The notes under the pieces: generated by a model
Told to the model about the DNA's origin: nothing
The model's input: only the letters and a program-made list of their open reading frames with translations
The model's database searches: none
Origin: Candidatus Dormibacteria bacterium
Lineage (GTDB): Bacteria > Chloroflexota > Dormibacteria > Aeolococcales > Aeolococcaceae
Reading direction: 5' to 3'
DNA length: 64,000 nt
NCBI GenBank assembly: GCA_051002895.1
Contig: JBPCLW010000042.1
Coordinates: 199,015 to 263,014, forward strand
In this document: piece after piece, positions 7,039 through 35,861 of the stretch
Position numbering within the stretch: position 1 is the first letter of the stretch
Layout of the letters: the number at the start of each line of letters is the position of its first letter
Translations under genes and position numbers: made by a program

Positions 7039-7902
7039 CTACCCCGGACCAGGCGCCGGCGTGACCTCGACCACCCGCGAGCGACCCGTCAGGTCAGTGG
7101 TGATGGTCACTTCCGATCCCGGCCACCGCGATCCCAGCAGTCCGGCAACGGCGTCGGCCCGGCGGGGATCCACCTCCACACCGAGCCAACTCGGAGTTGC
7201 CACGAGAGATGCCATCAGCGCGCGATAACAGAGGAGACCGTCACTGCCGCCGTCGATGGCGAGCGGGGGCTCGTAGTCGGCCACGTCGCGCTCCAGTTCG
7301 GCCAGTTCGGCAGAGGTCCCGTAGGGAGGGTTGCTGACCACTATGTCCATAACCTCCAGATCGTGCGCCCAGTCTCCGACGCGAACGTCGACGCGGTCCG
7401 CCACACCGTGTGCCCGCGCGTTGGCTGAGGCTACGCTCGCCGCCTCGGAGCTGAGGTCGATCGCCACGACACTAGCCCCAGGGATCTCCGCAGCGATCGT
7501 GACGGCAATGCACCCGCTGCCAGTGCCAAGATCAGCGATCCGCGGGGCCGGCCCGATACTCCGCGCGGCGACCAGAGCCCGCTCCACCAGTGACTCCGTG
7601 TCGGGCCGGGGAATCAGCACATCTCCGCTGACCCGGAAGCTGCGGCTGTGAAACTCCTTCTCGCCGGTAATGTGAGCAATTGGCTCGCCTTTCCCCCGGC
7701 GCCGCAGCAAGTCACGGACCCGGGTCAACTCGGTATCGGTGAGGCGGCGATCGAACTGCAGGTAGACGTCGAGACGCCGCAGTCCCAGGCCGTGCGCGGC
7801 AAGGAGCTCGGCATCGAGGCGCGGTGAATCGCTGCCGTGACTACCGAGATATCCGGTGGAAAGCCGGACCACCTCGATGAGCTCACGTCCCTCCGCTGCC
7901 AT
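7039..7902 (-). CDS. prmC: Release factor glutamine methyltransferase
   Basis: [25 protein letters not shown]; follows prfA. Confidence 0.96.
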
Positions 7903-8974
7903 CGGCCTCCAGCAGACGGCGCGCCTGATCCTCCTCGAGCAGCGCGTCGAGGATGGGATCTAGCTCGCCGTCGAGCACCCGGGCGAGCTGGTGGATATCG
8001 AGGCCGATGCGATGGTCGGTAATCCGCGATTGGGGAAAGTTGTAGGTGCGGATCTTCTCGCTGCGGTCACCACTGCCGACCATGGAGCGGCGGGTCGTGC
8101 GCAGGTCCGCCTGGCGCTCCGCCTCGGCCAGATCGAAGAGTCGCGCGCGCAGGACGCGCAGGGCCTTGGCCTTGTTCTTGTGCTGAGACTTCTCGTCCTG
8201 GCAGGTGACCACCAATCCGGTGGGCAGGTGAGTGATCCGCACCGCCGAGTCCGTGGTATTGACACTCTGCCCACCAGGTCCGGTGCTGCGAAAGACGTCG
8301 GTCTTGATGTCGGCCTCGGCGATGTCAACGTCGACCTCGTCCGCCTCAGGGAGGACGACGACGCTCGCCGCAGACGTGTGGATGCGGCCTTGAGACTCCG
8401 TCTCGGGAACGCGCTGTACCCGATGCACCCCGGACTCGAACTTGAGGCGCGAGTAAGCGCCCTGACCATGGACCTCGAAGACGACCTGTTTGAAGCCACG
8501 CGGCCCTGGGCCGCTCGACTCCATGACCTCGATTGGCCAACGCTGGCGCTCTGCGTAGCGACCATACATCCGAAAGAGATCGGCGGCGAAAAGAGCGGCC
8601 TCGTCACCGCCTGTGCCGGCGCGGATCTCGACAACGACGTCGCGATCATCCTTGGGATCACGCGGAAGTAACAGCTTGTGCAGCGCCGCAGCCGCCTCTT
8701 CCTCGACCGCGCGCTGACTGTGCTCCTCCTCCTCGGCGAGGACGACGATCTCTGCCTCGGTCTCACTGCGCGCCATCTCCCCCGCGGTACCCGCGGCTAC
8801 GTGGGCTGAGCGCCAGCGGCGCGCCGTCTCGACCACCTCACGCAGGCGCGCCTGCTCCTGGGAAAGGTCCTGCACATGCTCGCGATCGTCATAGACAGCA
8901 GGATCAGAGAGTTCCTCATCAATCTCCCCGAAGCGTGCCTCGATGGCGTCAAGTCGGTCCTCGAACGTGGCCAT
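7883..8974 (-). CDS. prfA: Peptide chain release factor 1
   Basis: GGQ motif, RVPETE (PxT), IRTYNFPQ. Confidence 0.98.
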
Positions 8975-9018
8975 CTCAGTGCACCGCAGGGGTCAGGAGG
9001 ACGTCGCGAATGCCGGGA

Positions 9019-9234
9019 TCAGGCCTTGGCGCTGGCCTTCTCGGCGCGCCGCCGGAAGCGCTCGACCTGGCCGCCGCTATCGAAAATGCGCTGCGTGCCG
9101 GTGTAGAAGGGATGGCATACCGAGCAAACCTCGGTCTTCAGCGCGGTCAGGACCGACCCGGTGGTAAAGGTGTTGCCGCACAGGCAGGTGACGACAGCGT
9201 CGGTGTGGTACTCAGGGTGAATTGCAGTCTTCAT
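9019..9234 (-). CDS. rpmE: 50S ribosomal protein L31 (Zn-binding form)
   Basis: MK..IHP.Y, CxC and CxxC, HPFYTG. Confidence 0.97.
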
Positions 9235-9383
9235 GGCACGATCAAACGGCGGACAGGGGATTCGCCGAGCATATCACCAGGGTCGGCGCCGCTGCGCCAC
9301 CACCATCGGACCCTGCCATGCGGAGCAGCGCGGTGGTCATGGCAATCGTGGCGGGATTGCGAGAGGACGCCCGCTCGGCCGGC

Positions 9384-9938
9384 TCAGGCCCCTGGCCCCG
9401 CGGAGCGTGCTTTCTCGACAGCGGTGAGCGCTTCACGGAGCGAGTCGATCCACTCGCCCTGATGCTTGGCGACGAGCCGCACGCACCAGGCGAGCGCCTC
9501 GGAGCGACTGCGAGCCACACCCGCGTCGATGAGAGTGTCGAGCACATTGCGATCCCCGAGGCGGAGCCGCGTCATCACCGGAACTCCGAGAGTGGTGAAG
9601 TGCTCGGTGATCTCCCCGCAGCGCGCGCCCCATGAGACCTTGCGCCCGAAGAGACGTTGCGCATCCTGGGCGACCCGGATCCGAGCGTCCTTGGTCTCGC
9701 CGCGGTGACGATCAATGCGCGCCGAGCGAGCCGCAGCCCGGGCGGCCTCAGATGCATCTGTCTCGAGTTCGACGTCGGGGAGCGTGCCGACGATCAGGAT
9801 CTCGTCGCGATCACCGGTGACCTCAGGAGCGCTGGTGTAGAGCTCATTGGGCAGGCGTCCGGCAAACCAGCCGCGAATCTCCTCCTCGGTAAACGTGGGT
9901 GGTGCCGTCGGGTGCGGGTCGGGGTGTCGAAACTTCAT
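9384..9938 (-). CDS. Conserved hypothetical protein with C-terminal ribbon-helix-helix-like segment
   Basis: 184 aa ORF; PVMTRLR..DRNVLDTLIDAGVARSRSEALAWCV resembles CopG/RHH pattern. Confidence 0.75.
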   Translation of the reverse strand: MKFRHPDPHPTAPPTFTEEEIRGWFAGRLPNELYTSAPEVTGDRDEILIVGTLPDVELETDASEAARAAARSARIDRHRGETKDARIRVAQDAQRLFGRKVSWGARCGEITEHFTTLGVPVMTRLRLGDRNVLDTLIDAGVARSRSEALAWCVRLVAKHQGEWIDSLREALTAVEKARSAGPGA

Positions 9939-9991
9939 GAATTACATGATTACACACAATCTCCAGGGTGTCGATTCGACCTGTGCAACCA

Positions 9992-11014
9992 CTAGCGCAC
10001 CCTCGACGCCTCGTCGGGGTCGAGGGCGACGTGATGCTTGGTGAGTATCTCGCGCACGGTCCCGCTCTGTGCCCGCATGACCAAGCTGTGGGTCTCCGCC
10101 CACCAGTTGTGATACTGGACGCCTTTCAACAAGCCACCGCCGGTGATGCCCGTCACAGCCACGGAAATTTCCTTGCCGGGGATGAGGTCGGCAATGGGCA
10201 GGGCCGCCTCGGGATCGATGCCAGAGGTGCGTAAGGCCGCTGCCTCGTCCTCGTGGCGGGTCCAGGGGCGACACTGCATCTCGCCGCCGAGGCAGCGGAT
10301 AGCACAGGCCGCGAGAAGGGCCTCGGTGGTTCCCCCAGAGCCGATGAGCACGTCAATCCCGGAACCGGGCCACGCCGTCATCAAAGCGGCACCGACGTCG
10401 CCATCACTGATCAGCGCAAGCCGTGCACCTACGCCGCGCACCCGCTCGAGCAGTGCCTGATGGCGGGGCCGATCGAGCATCACCACGGTGAGATCCTGGA
10501 CCTGGACGTTCATGGCGAAGGCGATGCGGTGGAGATTGTTCTCAGGAGTATCGGTAACGTCGATGGAACCGCGCGCCTGGGGCCCGACGGCGATCTTGTG
10601 GAGATACGCACAGCGAGGCGGTTCGATGATGCCGTCGGGCTCCACGGCGGCGGCGATGGAGAGGGCCTGCGACAGACCCTTGGCCACCAGACTGATGCCG
10701 TCGACGGGAAGGACGGCAAGGTCGATGCGATCGCGCCCCACACCAATGCGTCGTCCCCGAACCAGAGTGCTGTTCGCCGAGTCCGGGCCAATGACGACCT
10801 GGCCATCGAACGGCATACCGAGGAGCGCCTCCTCCATCGCGCGCTGGCCGGCATCACGCGTCCCGGCCTTATCGCCGCGGCCCAGCCACCGGCCGACCGA
10901 CAGCGCCGCAGCCTCGGTGGCACGCAGCAGTTCCAAACCACGATGGCTGTCACGACTGACCCGCGCCGGCGAGAACGCATCGCCGGCGCGCTCGGCGGTA
11001 TCCATCGCCGCCAT
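9992..11014 (-). CDS. glpX: GlpX-family (class II FBPase) protein, metal ligands degenerate
   Basis: ATEAAAL..GRGDK, LDRPRH, ISDGDV, GGTTE, TGIT.G.LL.GV; lacks GEGE and DP.EGT. Confidence 0.85.
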   Translation of the reverse strand: MAAMDTAERAGDAFSPARVSRDSHRGLELLRATEAAALSVGRWLGRGDKAGTRDAGQRAMEEALLGMPFDGQVVIGPDSANSTLVRGRRIGVGRDRIDLAVLPVDGISLVAKGLSQALSIAAAVEPDGIIEPPRCAYLHKIAVGPQARGSIDVTDTPENNLHRIAFAMNVQVQDLTVVMLDRPRHQALLERVRGVGARLALISDGDVGAALMTAWPGSGIDVLIGSGGTTEALLAACAIRCLGGEMQCRPWTRHEDEAAALRTSGIDPEAALPIADLIPGKEISVAVTGITGGGLLKGVQYHNWWAETHSLVMRAQSGTVREILTKHHVALDPDEASRVR

Positions 11015-11024
11015 TATCCGCAGC

Positions 11025-12788
<1,764 letters not shown>

Positions 12789-12831
12789 TCAGCGCACCCC
12801 TGTTCGCCTAAGAGGACGCCGCGGATCCGAG

Positions 12832-13452
12832 CTAGCCCCGCGGCTCGAGGACGACAAGACGGGTGTCATCGGCGCCGGCAAGGCTCCCGGAGAGGCTGAG
12901 CTTGGGCTGGGGGGCCCAGGCATCCTCGGCGAGGCCCATCTCCTTGGCGAACTTCTCGACCGGCTCGTACCCGCCACTTCCCGCCACGATTGGGGAGCGG
13001 TAGCGAGCGGGGATAACGATGGCAGGCGATACGGCATTGACAAGCTTGGTTGCGGCGGTGGCGCCGAGAGCATCAACGCCCCCGACGGGGACGACGAGGA
13101 CGTCGATGCGGCCGAGCTCGTCAACCTCCTCCTCGGTGAGCTGCCGATTGAGGCGGCCGAGAACCGCGACGCGTACATCGTCGATGTCCAGACGAACGAT
13201 GGTGGTGTCGCCTGCGGGCAACCCATTCACCGCGACGCCCCGGACCTCGAACTCTCCAGGGCCGCTCACCTCCTGAGCCTCTCCCTCGCGCGGACGCAGG
13301 CGCTCGGGCTGCAGTTCTCCGTCCGTCCGCACAACGATGTCAGCCTTGAGCTTGCCAAGACCACTCAGAGAGTCTTGGGGTGGGTCAAGCACGACCTGGC
13401 AGTCCCGGCCGCGAAGCCGGAAGCAGGAGAGGCCGTGGTAGGTAATCTCCAT
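12832..13452 (-). CDS. MBL-fold protein (UPF0173-like) lacking metal-binding motif
   Basis: ITYHGLSCF...LDP, GPGEFEV.GV, IDVLVVPVGG, P..VIP.. fold pattern; no HxHxDH. Confidence 0.75.
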   Translation of the reverse strand: MEITYHGLSCFRLRGRDCQVVLDPPQDSLSGLGKLKADIVVRTDGELQPERLRPREGEAQEVSGPGEFEVRGVAVNGLPAGDTTIVRLDIDDVRVAVLGRLNRQLTEEEVDELGRIDVLVVPVGGVDALGATAATKLVNAVSPAIVIPARYRSPIVAGSGGYEPVEKFAKEMGLAEDAWAPQPKLSLSGSLAGADDTRLVVLEPRG

Positions 13453-13488
13453 CGCGAGCGATGCTACCACCGCGCCGCTGAGCAGCTG

Positions 13489-14619
13489 TCAGCGGGTGCT
13501 GCCGACGATGACGACGACCGTGCGTGACGCACCGGCGGTGCCGACTATCACCTGGAGCTGCTGCCCCGCTTCGACACCGAGCGCCGTGGCATCAAACGGC
13601 TTTGCCGGGCCGATGGGTACTCCATTCACCGCGGTGACGATGTCGCCCGACCTGATACCGGCCCTCGCAGCGGGGCCATCGGGATCAATGGACCGCACCA
13701 GCGCCCCCCCCGCCAGCCCGGCGGCGGCGGCGGCGGCCGGATCGAGGATCGCCGAGTCGGCGCCCAAGGTCGCGCGGTTGCTGTGCGCGCCCGACCCAGC
13801 ACTGCCGGCCAGCGCCGCCGCTGCCGCCCCGGACAGCGCAATGAGCCCCGCCGGTGGGGTGGCCGCAGTGATCGCCACCACCACGCCGATGACCTTGCCG
13901 GTGCCGTCCACCACCGGCGCACCGTCTGCTTGGGGTTCGGGGCTGGCGTTTACGGTGAGGGCGTCGACAACCGAGATGTTGGCGGATCGGTCGATCTCCA
14001 CGGCCCGTCCCGTGGAACTCACGGTGCCCACCCCAAGTGAGCTGGTGGCACCGAGCGGCGGACGAGAAATCGCCAGGGCGAGATCTCCCGGAGTCGGCGC
14101 CGACGCCGCGAAACTGAGTGGGCTGAGCCCGCTGGCACCGGTGGCGCGGATCGCCACCAGGCCGTGCGCGACATCGGTAGTGATCACTTGAGCGTCATAG
14201 GCGTGACCGTCCGCGGTGCCGACGCGGAGGCGAGTGGCCCCCTGCAATGCGTGGGCGCTGGTGACAACGAGCCCGTCAGCACTCACCACGAATCCGTTGA
14301 CGAGGCCGGCACTGCTGTCGAGGAGACCGCTCGCCGCCACCGGCCGGGTGGCGATGGTCACCAGCGACGGACGGGTGGCGGCGGCGATGTCGTTGACGTT
14401 GCGCGCGCCACCCCCACTCCCGTTGAGATCCCTGATCGGGGTGGAGACGATCTGCTGCACCGGACCGAACCGGCTGTACACCGCCCAAGCGCCCAGGCCA
14501 CCTCCGATACAACCGATGACCGCGCTGAGCACCACCGCGGCGAGCAGTCGCGGGCCACCGCGCCGACGCTCGGTGTCAGAGGGCGCTGCCTCCGGCTTCT
14601 GCGTGGCTGCCTCGCTCAT
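13489..14619 (-). CDS. Membrane-anchored HtrA/S1C protease homologue with PDZ domain, triad degenerate
   Basis: TM helix, GFVVSADGLVVTSAH, G.VIGV, PDZ GPAARAGIRSGDIVTAVNG. Confidence 0.82.
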   Translation of the reverse strand: MSEAATQKPEAAPSDTERRRGGPRLLAAVVLSAVIGCIGGGLGAWAVYSRFGPVQQIVSTPIRDLNGSGGGARNVNDIAAATRPSLVTIATRPVAASGLLDSSAGLVNGFVVSADGLVVTSAHALQGATRLRVGTADGHAYDAQVITTDVAHGLVAIRATGASGLSPLSFAASAPTPGDLALAISRPPLGATSSLGVGTVSSTGRAVEIDRSANISVVDALTVNASPEPQADGAPVVDGTGKVIGVVVAITAATPPAGLIALSGAAAAALAGSAGSGAHSNRATLGADSAILDPAAAAAAGLAGGALVRSIDPDGPAARAGIRSGDIVTAVNGVPIGPAKPFDATALGVEAGQQLQVIVGTAGASRTVVVIVGSTR

Positions 14620-35648: not shown

Positions 35649-35721
35649 TGGCGGTACCTGGACTCGAACCAGGGACATACCGGGTATGAGCCGGGTGCTC
35701 TACCAACTGAGCTATACCGCC
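35649..35721 (-). tRNA. tRNA-Met (CAT), elongator type
   Basis: Cloverleaf GGCGGTA/TACCGCC, GCTC/GAGC, loop CT-CAT-AC, TTCGAGT; CCA not encoded. Confidence 0.9.
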
Positions 35722-35789: not shown

Positions 35790-35861
35790 TTGCGGCGGTT
35801 GGATTCGAACCAACGACCTTCGGGTTATGAGCCCGACGAGCTTCCACTGCTCCACGCCGCC
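35790..35861 (-). tRNA. tRNA-fMet (CAT), initiator
   Basis: TCGGG-CTCATAA-CCCGA anticodon arm with three G-C pairs, A11-U24, 1-72 mismatch (G/A). Confidence 0.93.

Follow-up and report, generated by a model that had tools for sequence, protein, structure and literature searches.

Introduction

What does a GlpX protein do once the residues that make it an enzyme have been replaced? The question is raised by a gene in a 64,000-nucleotide stretch of DNA from a Candidatus Dormibacteria bacterium (GenBank assembly GCA_051002895.1, contig JBPCLW010000042.1, positions 199,015 to 263,014 of the forward strand), referred to here as the window. The gene, directly downstream of pyrG, encodes a member of the GlpX family, the class II fructose-1,6-bisphosphatases (FBPases). 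GlpX is usually treated as a plain housekeeping enzyme and, in pathogens, as a drug target. Pseudoenzymes, conserved homologs of enzymes that lack the catalytic residues and keep the ligand pocket, are a well-known kind of protein. A preliminary description of the gene had proposed that its product has lost the metal and nucleophile sites and kept the sugar-phosphate site, and that it is a sensor for fructose 1,6-bisphosphate (FBP) or fructose 6-phosphate (F6P), or a non-catalytic partner subunit, rather than an FBPase.

By comparing the gene with its relatives, with the canonical GlpX of the same genomes and with solved GlpX structures, we found that it belongs to an old paralog lineage that forms one clade within its class and experiences purifying selection of about the same strength as true GlpX. 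On balance, and with modest confidence, we regard the window protein as probably a sugar-phosphate-binding pseudoenzyme that is not an FBPase. Pseudoenzyme paralogs are well known in general, and pseudophosphatases and other pseudoenzymes follow the same principle in different folds and families; what is new here is such a variant within the GlpX family. No description of a non-catalytic GlpX-family protein was found in the literature searched, a search that did not extend to supplements.

A GlpX fold with a degenerate catalytic centre

The open reading frame (ORF) comprises 340 codons and is open throughout, without a stop or frameshift. Translation may instead begin at an ATG three codons downstream, as one database copy (P0001) is 337 aa long. 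The product matches PF03320 (FBPase_glpX) over nearly the whole profile (positions 4-307 of 307) with 330.7 bits and an E value of 9e-99, against a cut-off of 27. Its score for the equivalog family TIGR00330, 236.9 bits, lies below the 259.3 cut-off. The best solved relative is GlpX of Mycobacterium tuberculosis (Mtb; 6ayy), to which HMMER aligns the protein from end to end (E 1.2e-70). An AlphaFold2 (AF2) model built from a 16-sequence alignment reached a mean predicted local distance difference test score (pLDDT) of 89 and a predicted template modelling score (pTM) of 0.85. When the model was compared with the PDB in Foldseek, Mtb GlpX was recovered with template modelling (TM) scores of 0.87/0.93-0.96 and a root-mean-square deviation (rmsd) of 1.3-1.7 Å, and the top match was the engineered Mtb T84A protein. 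By this predicted model the three-dimensional fold of GlpX is retained. The gene is real and functional, and it encodes a GlpX-fold protein.

The window protein was read against the catalytic-site residues listed for Mtb GlpX in PMC5892879 (D27, E51, D79, D82, T84, Y114, R159, R161, D183 and E208), mapped through the HMMER alignment. Four of the ten are replaced: D27 by R53, E51 by P77, D79 by L102 and the nucleophile T84 by I107. The other six are kept, D82 as D105, Y114 as Y137, R159 as R182, R161 as R184, D183 as D206 and E208 as E231. The loss of the metal-binding acids and of the catalytic Thr claimed in the preliminary description is thereby borne out, as are the three altered motifs in which it had been noticed (KAGTR, IGPDSANSTL and AVLPVDGI, each present exactly as given) and the retained substrate-contact elements, found here as YLHK, RPR, DGD and GGTTE. 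The full-length frame and the family alignment described above likewise agree with it. Positions of these motifs are collected in Table 1.

Table 1. Position of the degenerate GlpX paralog, its motifs, its neighbours and related genes of family f4
Feature	Position	Strand	Remarks
rpmE, prfA, prmC housekeeping block	7039..9234	-	after the AbmR-like gene
AbmR-like ATP-binding transcription factor	9384..9938	-	53 nt downstream of the paralog; NF058631, 234 bits against a cut-off of 160
Degenerate GlpX paralog (putative pseudo-FBPase), 340 aa	9992..11014	-	ORF, PF03320, AF2 model
GGTTE, residues 227-231	10322..10336	-	Glu231 (= Mtb E208), kept
DGD, residues 204-206 (ISDGD 202-206)	10397..10405	-	furanose-hydroxyl motif, kept
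RPR, residues 182-184	10463..10471	-	6-phosphate clamp R182/R184, kept
YLHK, residues 137-140	10595..10606	-	Tyr137 of the 6-phosphate triad, kept
AVLPVDGI, residues 100-107	10694..10717	-	degenerate M1 metal site (DPxDGT); D79 to L102, T84 to I107, D82 kept as D105
IGPDSANSTL, residues 75-84	10763..10792	-	degenerate remnant of the metal-ordered GEGEKDxAPML loop (E51 to P77), two residues shorter
KAGTR, residues 49-53	10856..10870	-	Arg53 at the metal-ligand/Thr-activating Asp (Mtb D27 / E. coli D33)
pyrG (CTP synthase)	11025..12776	-	directly upstream, co-directional; 10 nt separate its stop and the paralog ATG
f4 class V FBP aldolase/phosphatase	G041:C39:4245-5321
f4 class V FBP aldolase/phosphatase	G053:C31:125809-126885
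f4 class V FBP aldolase/phosphatase	G110:C22:55359-56435

The replacements fall on one side of the pocket. In GlpX the high-affinity M1 metal site is formed by DPxDGT and the Glu of GEGE, the RPR motif grips the 6-phosphate, IxDGD holds the ring hydroxyls and a Thr acts as the nucleophile (PMC10289334). The four residues lost from the window protein are those that serve the cleavable 1-phosphate, namely the nucleophile and three metal ligands, and the six that remain serve the 6-phosphate and the sugar ring, together with two acids of the former metal site. The protein thus lacks the catalytic Thr, the M1 metal site and the second metal ligand Asp27/33, and it has the 6-phosphate pocket, the IxDGD motif and Glu208/213. 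A short helix past the DG motif stabilises the 1-phosphate in GlpX (PMC10289334), and the model predicts such a helix at residues 107-111.

Experiments on the nucleophile give these changes a meaning. The catalytic Thr column (T84 in Mtb, T90 in E. coli, T89 in F. tularensis) holds T in 31/31 canonical sequences, and by the HMMER alignment the column of Ile107 is the one where the PDB variants 6ayv and 6ayu, which are T84A and T84S of Mtb GlpX (PMC5892879), differ from the wild type. Activity is completely lost in Mtb T84A (PMC5892879) and in T89A of Francisella tularensis GlpX (PMC10289334), and part of it is retained in Mtb T84S (PMC5892879). The T84A change is reported to leave binding affinity unaltered (PMC5485559), and the inactive protein was crystallised with F6P bound (PMC5892879). 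Because four of the ten catalytic residues are replaced and Thr-to-Ala variants are inactive in both species, we infer that the window protein has lost FBP hydrolysis.

Compared with Mtb Rv1099c (6ayy/7txb), to which it is 41-42% identical, and with GlpX of E. coli (3d1r) and F. tularensis (7js3), the window protein belongs to the same Pfam family and has the same fold. It shares with class II FBPases the RPR clamp, IxDGD, the Tyr and the Glu of GG..E. It differs from them in that the Thr nucleophile, the activating Asp, the first Asp of DPxDGT and the Glu of GEGE are missing, the metal-ordered loop is shorter and the score falls below the NCBIfam equivalog cut-off. Engineered Mtb T84A (6ayv) resembles it in having no hydroxyl at the nucleophile position. 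That protein, however, is a point mutant that keeps all metal ligands, whereas the window protein has also lost three of them, has gained Arg53 and belongs to an evolved, conserved lineage.

One old paralog clade of the class

The degenerate site is shared far beyond the window. The best 120 database homologs, one of which is the window's own protein, are 72-100% identical to it and all share the degenerate pattern; several are labelled 'fructose-bisphosphatase class II family protein' and come from metagenome-assembled genomes (MAGs) named Candidatus Dormibacteraeota or Dormibacteria. Our first sample of the phylum comprised 151 genomes, including two unpublished ones that enter only into tallies or serve as a single outgroup row. 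It included 16 genomes of the window's class, in four families (f1 to f4). In a maximum likelihood tree of 47 sequences the 16 degenerate copies from these genomes stand on one side of a branch supported by an ultrafast bootstrap (UFBoot) of 100 and an SH-aLRT of 94, and all of 200 bootstrap trees (100%) grouped them together. The degenerate form makes up one old paralog clade of the class Candidatus Dormibacteria, a class name that we take from source labels.

A profile of the degenerate clade, whose score ranges were validated on sequences that had been read, was then run against 121 genomes of the class. By score about 105 of the 121 carry the degenerate type, or 99 of 113 when eight unpublished genomes are set aside, and no conclusion depends on those eight by themselves (Table 2).

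Table 2. Occurrence of the degenerate type by score, and residues at Mtb catalytic positions, by family
Family	Degenerate type	D27	E51	D79	T84	Other changes
f1	28/28	R	P/V/S	L/I/M/T	I/V/A	none
f2	34/36	R/K	E/D	K	S	none
f3	33/36 (3 ambiguous)	R/K/S	P	Y/F	A	DGD to EGE (D181, D183 to E)
f4	10/11	R	variable	G	V	Y to L, D183 to E, E208 to D
f46	0/10

Among these changes, the replacement of Asp by Arg or Lys at position 53 stands alone as a new residue fixed clade-wide in a catalytic column that was once invariant: 15 of the 16 class-level copies have R or K there. R182 and R184 are invariant in all 16. Columns conserved at 90% or more in canonical GlpX number 124, and for 73 of these the residue is retained by three quarters or more of the class-level copies; the lost ones concentrate in residues 23-126.

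Some GlpX-like matches contain one in-frame stop, either TAG (G162, G166, G170, G178 and G242) or TGA (G236, G072, G035 and G098). In these the open frame equals the match in length, and the stops are probably alignments that run past the terminal stop of the shorter f3 proteins.

Purifying selection and conservation of the pocket

A decaying duplicate on its way to becoming a pseudogene, or an artefact of assembly or annotation, would also lack catalytic residues. That artefacts of assembly may arise in the GlpX family is suggested by a 1729-bp metagenome contig, L115. Its GlpX ORF (L115:309-1301) is chimeric: the N-terminal half is fully canonical, with GEGEKD and DPVDGT, and the C-terminal half, from LDRPRH onward, follows the degenerate-clade consensus, with the AbmR-like gene after it. 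The ORF may have arisen in assembly, by joining at the conserved motif, or it may be a real recombinant. The window gene itself has a full-length open frame, lies in a contig region syntenic with relatives and shares its degenerate pattern with the database homologs and with a clade that spans four families. Decay confined to the window's genome was therefore rejected.

Rates of substitution speak against decay as well. Across the same 15 pairs from six f1 genomes, the nonsynonymous rate (dN, Nei-Gojobori) of the degenerate copy exceeds the intact copy's by a median factor of 1.14, and the ratio of dN to the synonymous rate dS (omega) is 0.01-0.23 in those f1 pairs where dS is unsaturated. For 58 full-length coding sequences (57 from metagenome loci plus the window's) the median omega is 0.225, against 0.132 for pyrG of the same loci, the median being taken over the 1642 of 1653 pairs with dS of 0.05-1.5; high GC content at third codon positions probably compresses dS, so the contrast between the two genes can be relied on more than the absolute values. 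The degenerate paralog is under purifying selection about as strong as true GlpX. With the loss shared by about 105 of 121 genomes and omega near 0.1-0.2, far below 1, the possibility named in the preliminary description, a loss restricted to this genome with neutral evolution, does not hold, and we give decay or artefact next to no credence.

Selection has preserved the sugar-phosphate side of the pocket in particular. Tyr137, Arg182, Arg184, DGD, Asp105 and Glu231 are invariant among close relatives. In 182 family-level sequences (6 genome, 56 metagenome and 120 database copies, sets that may overlap) all seven of the kept pocket residues are invariant, compared with 98 of the 306 core positions, for which a hypergeometric test gives p about 3e-4, a value that overstates the significance because the 182 sequences are related. 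The residue at position 53 is R, and those at 182 and 184 are likewise unchanged, in 182/182. The window protein, then, belongs to an enzyme family, has lost essential residues and is maintained by selection, which are among the marks of a pseudoenzyme.

Canonical GlpX and other FBPases in the same genomes

The preliminary description had suggested looking for a second, intact glpX, and there is one. The window's assembly (1.88 Mb in 56 contigs, 90.5% complete) has a second PF03320 gene on contig C46 (G000:C46, L001:1450-2505), which scores 427 bits. All canonical motifs and the ten catalytic-site residues are intact in its product, which reaches 345.9 bits for TIGR00330 against the 259.3 cut-off. 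It is of similar length to the window protein, of the same family and 43-44% identical to it, and differs in its intact catalytic site and in its locus, which is not linked to pyrG. This copy would do the work of the enzyme in the cell, as searches of the genome for class I, III and V FBPases found none. When both GlpX-like genes were read in the 16 class genomes, all 16 had the degenerate copy and 13 also the canonical one, and 24 of 28 f1 genomes have two GlpX matches.

This coexistence invites the suggestion that the dead paralog is a regulatory subunit, co-assembling with catalytic GlpX and tuning its activity. GlpX enzymes are homotetramers (PMC5892879), with 222 symmetry in the solved structures, and the fold is fully kept in the model; most genomes read hold both copies, as just noted. 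The two genes are, however, never neighbours in the loci read, and each occurs without the other. In f4 the sole GlpX copy is the degenerate one (3/3 genomes by PF03320, 10/11 with a single match), and each of the three f4 genomes tested encodes an FBP aldolase/phosphatase of class V (PF01950, 559-568 bits; Table 1), an enzyme found neither in the window's genome nor in G029. The degenerate gene is also the sole copy in four f1 genomes. Conversely, in family f46, which shares its order with f1, the 7/7 genomes read have a canonical GlpX alone, unlinked to pyrG, and no GlpX-like sequence was found between pyrG and rpmE in its 5/5 loci (L153-L157), where the slot is about 1.3 kb. Since the paralogs are gained and lost separately, with the degenerate copy persisting in f4 where a class V FBPase replaces the canonical one and lost from f46, the degenerate paralog is not an obligate subunit of GlpX. 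The partner-subunit proposal of the preliminary description is weakened accordingly, and a regulatory subunit of any kind seems to us quite unlikely.

Is catalysis altered rather than lost?

Several observations weigh against a plain loss of catalysis, or against a conserved sugar-phosphate binder. Two of the lost sites are directly followed by an acid, D54 after R53 and D78 after P77, and these may act as shifted metal ligands. The acids recur in f1, with D or E after R53 in 56/57 metagenome and 108/120 database sequences and after position 77 in 36/57 and 117/120, respectively. Asp is found at the D79 position itself in 21/57 metagenome and 7/120 database copies. The f2 copies have an acid at the E51 position (E in 2/3, D in 1/3) together with Ser at the Thr site. 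The sugar-contact residues are not constant across the class, being changed in f3 and f4, and the loss of the gene from the pyrG-rpmE slot in f46 indicates that the paralog is dispensable there.

Four of the 28 f1 genomes (G156, G186, G237 and G243; 89-93% complete) weigh on the same side. Their only GlpX-family gene is the degenerate copy, which has kept the Asp of D79, and searches for class I, III and V FBPases found nothing in them. A gene of the phosphofructokinase (PFK) family is present in all four, and G176, of the same genus, has a canonical copy. The gap may reflect incomplete MAGs, a PFK-family enzyme that covers the step or a degenerate copy that is still catalytic. Taken with the Asp kept in part of the clade, the adjacent acids and the Ser and acid of f2, these genomes make residual or altered catalysis possible in part of the clade.

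In its fuller form this explanation holds that the paralog is a neo-functionalised enzyme, either a weak FBPase or sedoheptulose-bisphosphatase (SBPase) or an enzyme that hydrolyses or transfers the phosphate of another sugar, with a centre built from Arg53, D54, D78, D105 and E231. Purifying selection as strong as that on true GlpX would be expected of an enzyme too, and Ser at the Thr site in f2 recalls the partly active T84S of Mtb. The clade as a whole fits this less well. No hydroxyl is present clade-wide at or next to the nucleophile, the column being I, V or A in f1, f3 and f4, and Thr-to-Ala variants are dead in two species. The D79 residue is L, I, M, T, K, G, Y or F by family and the former metal loop differs between families in length and sequence, a pattern unexpected for a conserved new active site. 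A canonical FBPase is also present in most genomes. We therefore treat a new catalytic function as a real but minor possibility, and continue to favour a non-catalytic, sugar-phosphate-binding protein.

Under that preferred reading the paralog would bind a sugar phosphate (F6P, FBP or a similar ligand) without cleaving it. Judging from published descriptions of Asp27/33, Arg53 would lie near the former 1-phosphate and metal site, where the basic side chain could supply the charge formerly provided by the metal, by holding a phosphate or by neutralising the remaining acids. The protein would form an assembly of its own rather than an obligatory part of catalytic GlpX.

Genomic context

The paralog lies between pyrG and a block of housekeeping genes (Table 1). 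Directly upstream, co-directional pyrG is found in 15 of the 16 class genomes, the exception being G083, and in 13 of 15 loci the pyrG stop and the paralog start lie -8 to +99 nt apart. Five loci show a 4-nt overlap, and two of the gap values depend on the choice of start. In f3 the order is argS, a gene of the metallo-beta-lactamase (MBL) fold, pyrG, the paralog, one variable gene, rpmE, DUF1385, prfA and prmC. About 20 of 77 metagenome loci have some 1.4 kb between pyrG and the paralog, and the three such inserts scanned (L049:1733-2956, L065:1808-2989 and L060:1623-2348) contain ORFs of about 240-400 aa without a Pfam family.

Downstream the neighbours change, and no constant partner of the paralog was found there across the class families. 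They include a Clp protease, a radical SAM protein, an M23 or M50 peptidase, AbmR, a ferritin and ORFs without a family; pyrG is thus the only constant neighbour. An AbmR-like gene follows on the same strand, directly or within about 2.8 kb, in 33 of the 77 metagenome loci. The AbmR-like family is named after a mycobacterial regulator, and the relatives of the window's genome are labelled Dormibacteria or Chloroflexi. A promoter and terminator scan of positions 8900-13600 gave one promoter-like site (9974-9946, before the AbmR-like gene), no more than shuffled sequences gave. A search for sequencing runs covering positions 9384-12776 listed no RNA data set. An Rfam scan of the whole window recovered only two tRNAs (35649-35721 and 35790-35861, minus strand), far from the paralog.

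The preliminary description had placed the gene at an ancestral pyrG-glpX-rpmE locus, which we take to be the Bacillus-type gene order at glpX. Within the class the link with pyrG stands; as an ancestral arrangement it is weakly supported, since outside the class pyrG lies near (within 8 kb on either side of) a canonical glpX in one of 15 genomes of the phylum (G086). A pyrG-glpX order general in the phylum was rejected on the same count.

To judge from these loci, the pairing with the CTP synthase gene is the only constant link to a possible output of the paralog. It suggests a partner or regulator of CTP synthase that would connect sugar-phosphate status to pyrimidine synthesis, a proposal favoured by the constancy of the neighbour and by the short or overlapping spacing, 10 nt in the window. 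Adjacency alone is weak evidence, though, as the linkage may be inherited gene order; the two genes stand about 1.4 kb apart in many metagenome loci, and f46 keeps pyrG without the paralog. A complex prediction for PyrG with the paralog scored 0.00, which counts neither for nor against binding. A dedicated role at CTP synthase is in our view very unlikely.

Degenerate GlpX forms in other phyla

A search of 1.84 billion representative sequences with the clade profile returned 8101 GlpX-family proteins at E <= 1e-3. Among the best 150 of these, the five metal and nucleophile columns are covered by 122, of which 74 are fully canonical and 39 show at least two changes, a list enriched for degenerate forms because the query profile is itself degenerate. 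Three of the 39 fall in the clade of the window protein, which comprises 19 rows and has support 99, and the others are scattered. In the tree of representatives the starred branches force at least 14 label changes, and a second group of 12 rows contains 10 degenerate members.

Ten degenerate representatives were looked up. Their clusters have 1-8 members, and six of the ten bear a name from their source, in all six cases class II FBPase or FBPase II. The five clusters with an organism come from MAGs of Bacillota, Deltaproteobacteria, Krumholzibacteria and Magnetospiraceae and from Pseudonocardia isolates. The last of these, the P0140 cluster, comes from cultured isolates; in this GlpX homolog 6 of 11 scored site positions are changed, and RefSeq names it class II fructose-bisphosphatase. 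As a possible tractable organism, this Pseudonocardia could serve the study of dead GlpX.

Like the window protein, the degenerate forms of other phyla (P0126, P0135, P0139, P0140, P0164 and others) mostly keep RPR and DGD. They differ from it in lying scattered outside its clade, in forming small clusters and in lacking the Asp-to-Arg change. From their sequences they look like independent events, and the GlpX centre seems to have been lost repeatedly in bacteria while RPR and DGD were retained. The window's clade is the large, old and well-conserved case among them.

Implications

A broader picture can be drawn, which we regard as speculative and unlikely in its entirety. It would make the paralog a class-wide, metal-free fructose-phosphate receptor in which Arg53 replaces the metal and FBP or F6P is held uncleaved; made in step with CTP synthase from an overlapping gene pair, it would report the status of central carbon metabolism to nucleotide or growth control, as one of repeated conversions of GlpX to non-catalytic forms.

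The clade belongs to a soil lineage without cultured members, for which annotation is the only guide to carbon metabolism. Database entries name the degenerate proteins FBPase II, and the f2 and f4 copies (L009 and L012) exceed the TIGR00330 cut-off, with 298.9 and 260.5 bits against 259.3, and will thus be named true class II FBPases by automatic annotation, so metabolic reconstructions may count an FBPase that probably is none. In f4 and in the four f1 genomes, no GlpX-family gene other than the degenerate copy was found. For the family, nature's exchange of Asp for Arg at the metal site offers a way to test how the pocket of a metal-dependent phosphatase can become a ligand receptor, and if the proposed loss of catalysis is true, the clade would be the first natural example of a GlpX fold kept for binding and not for catalysis.

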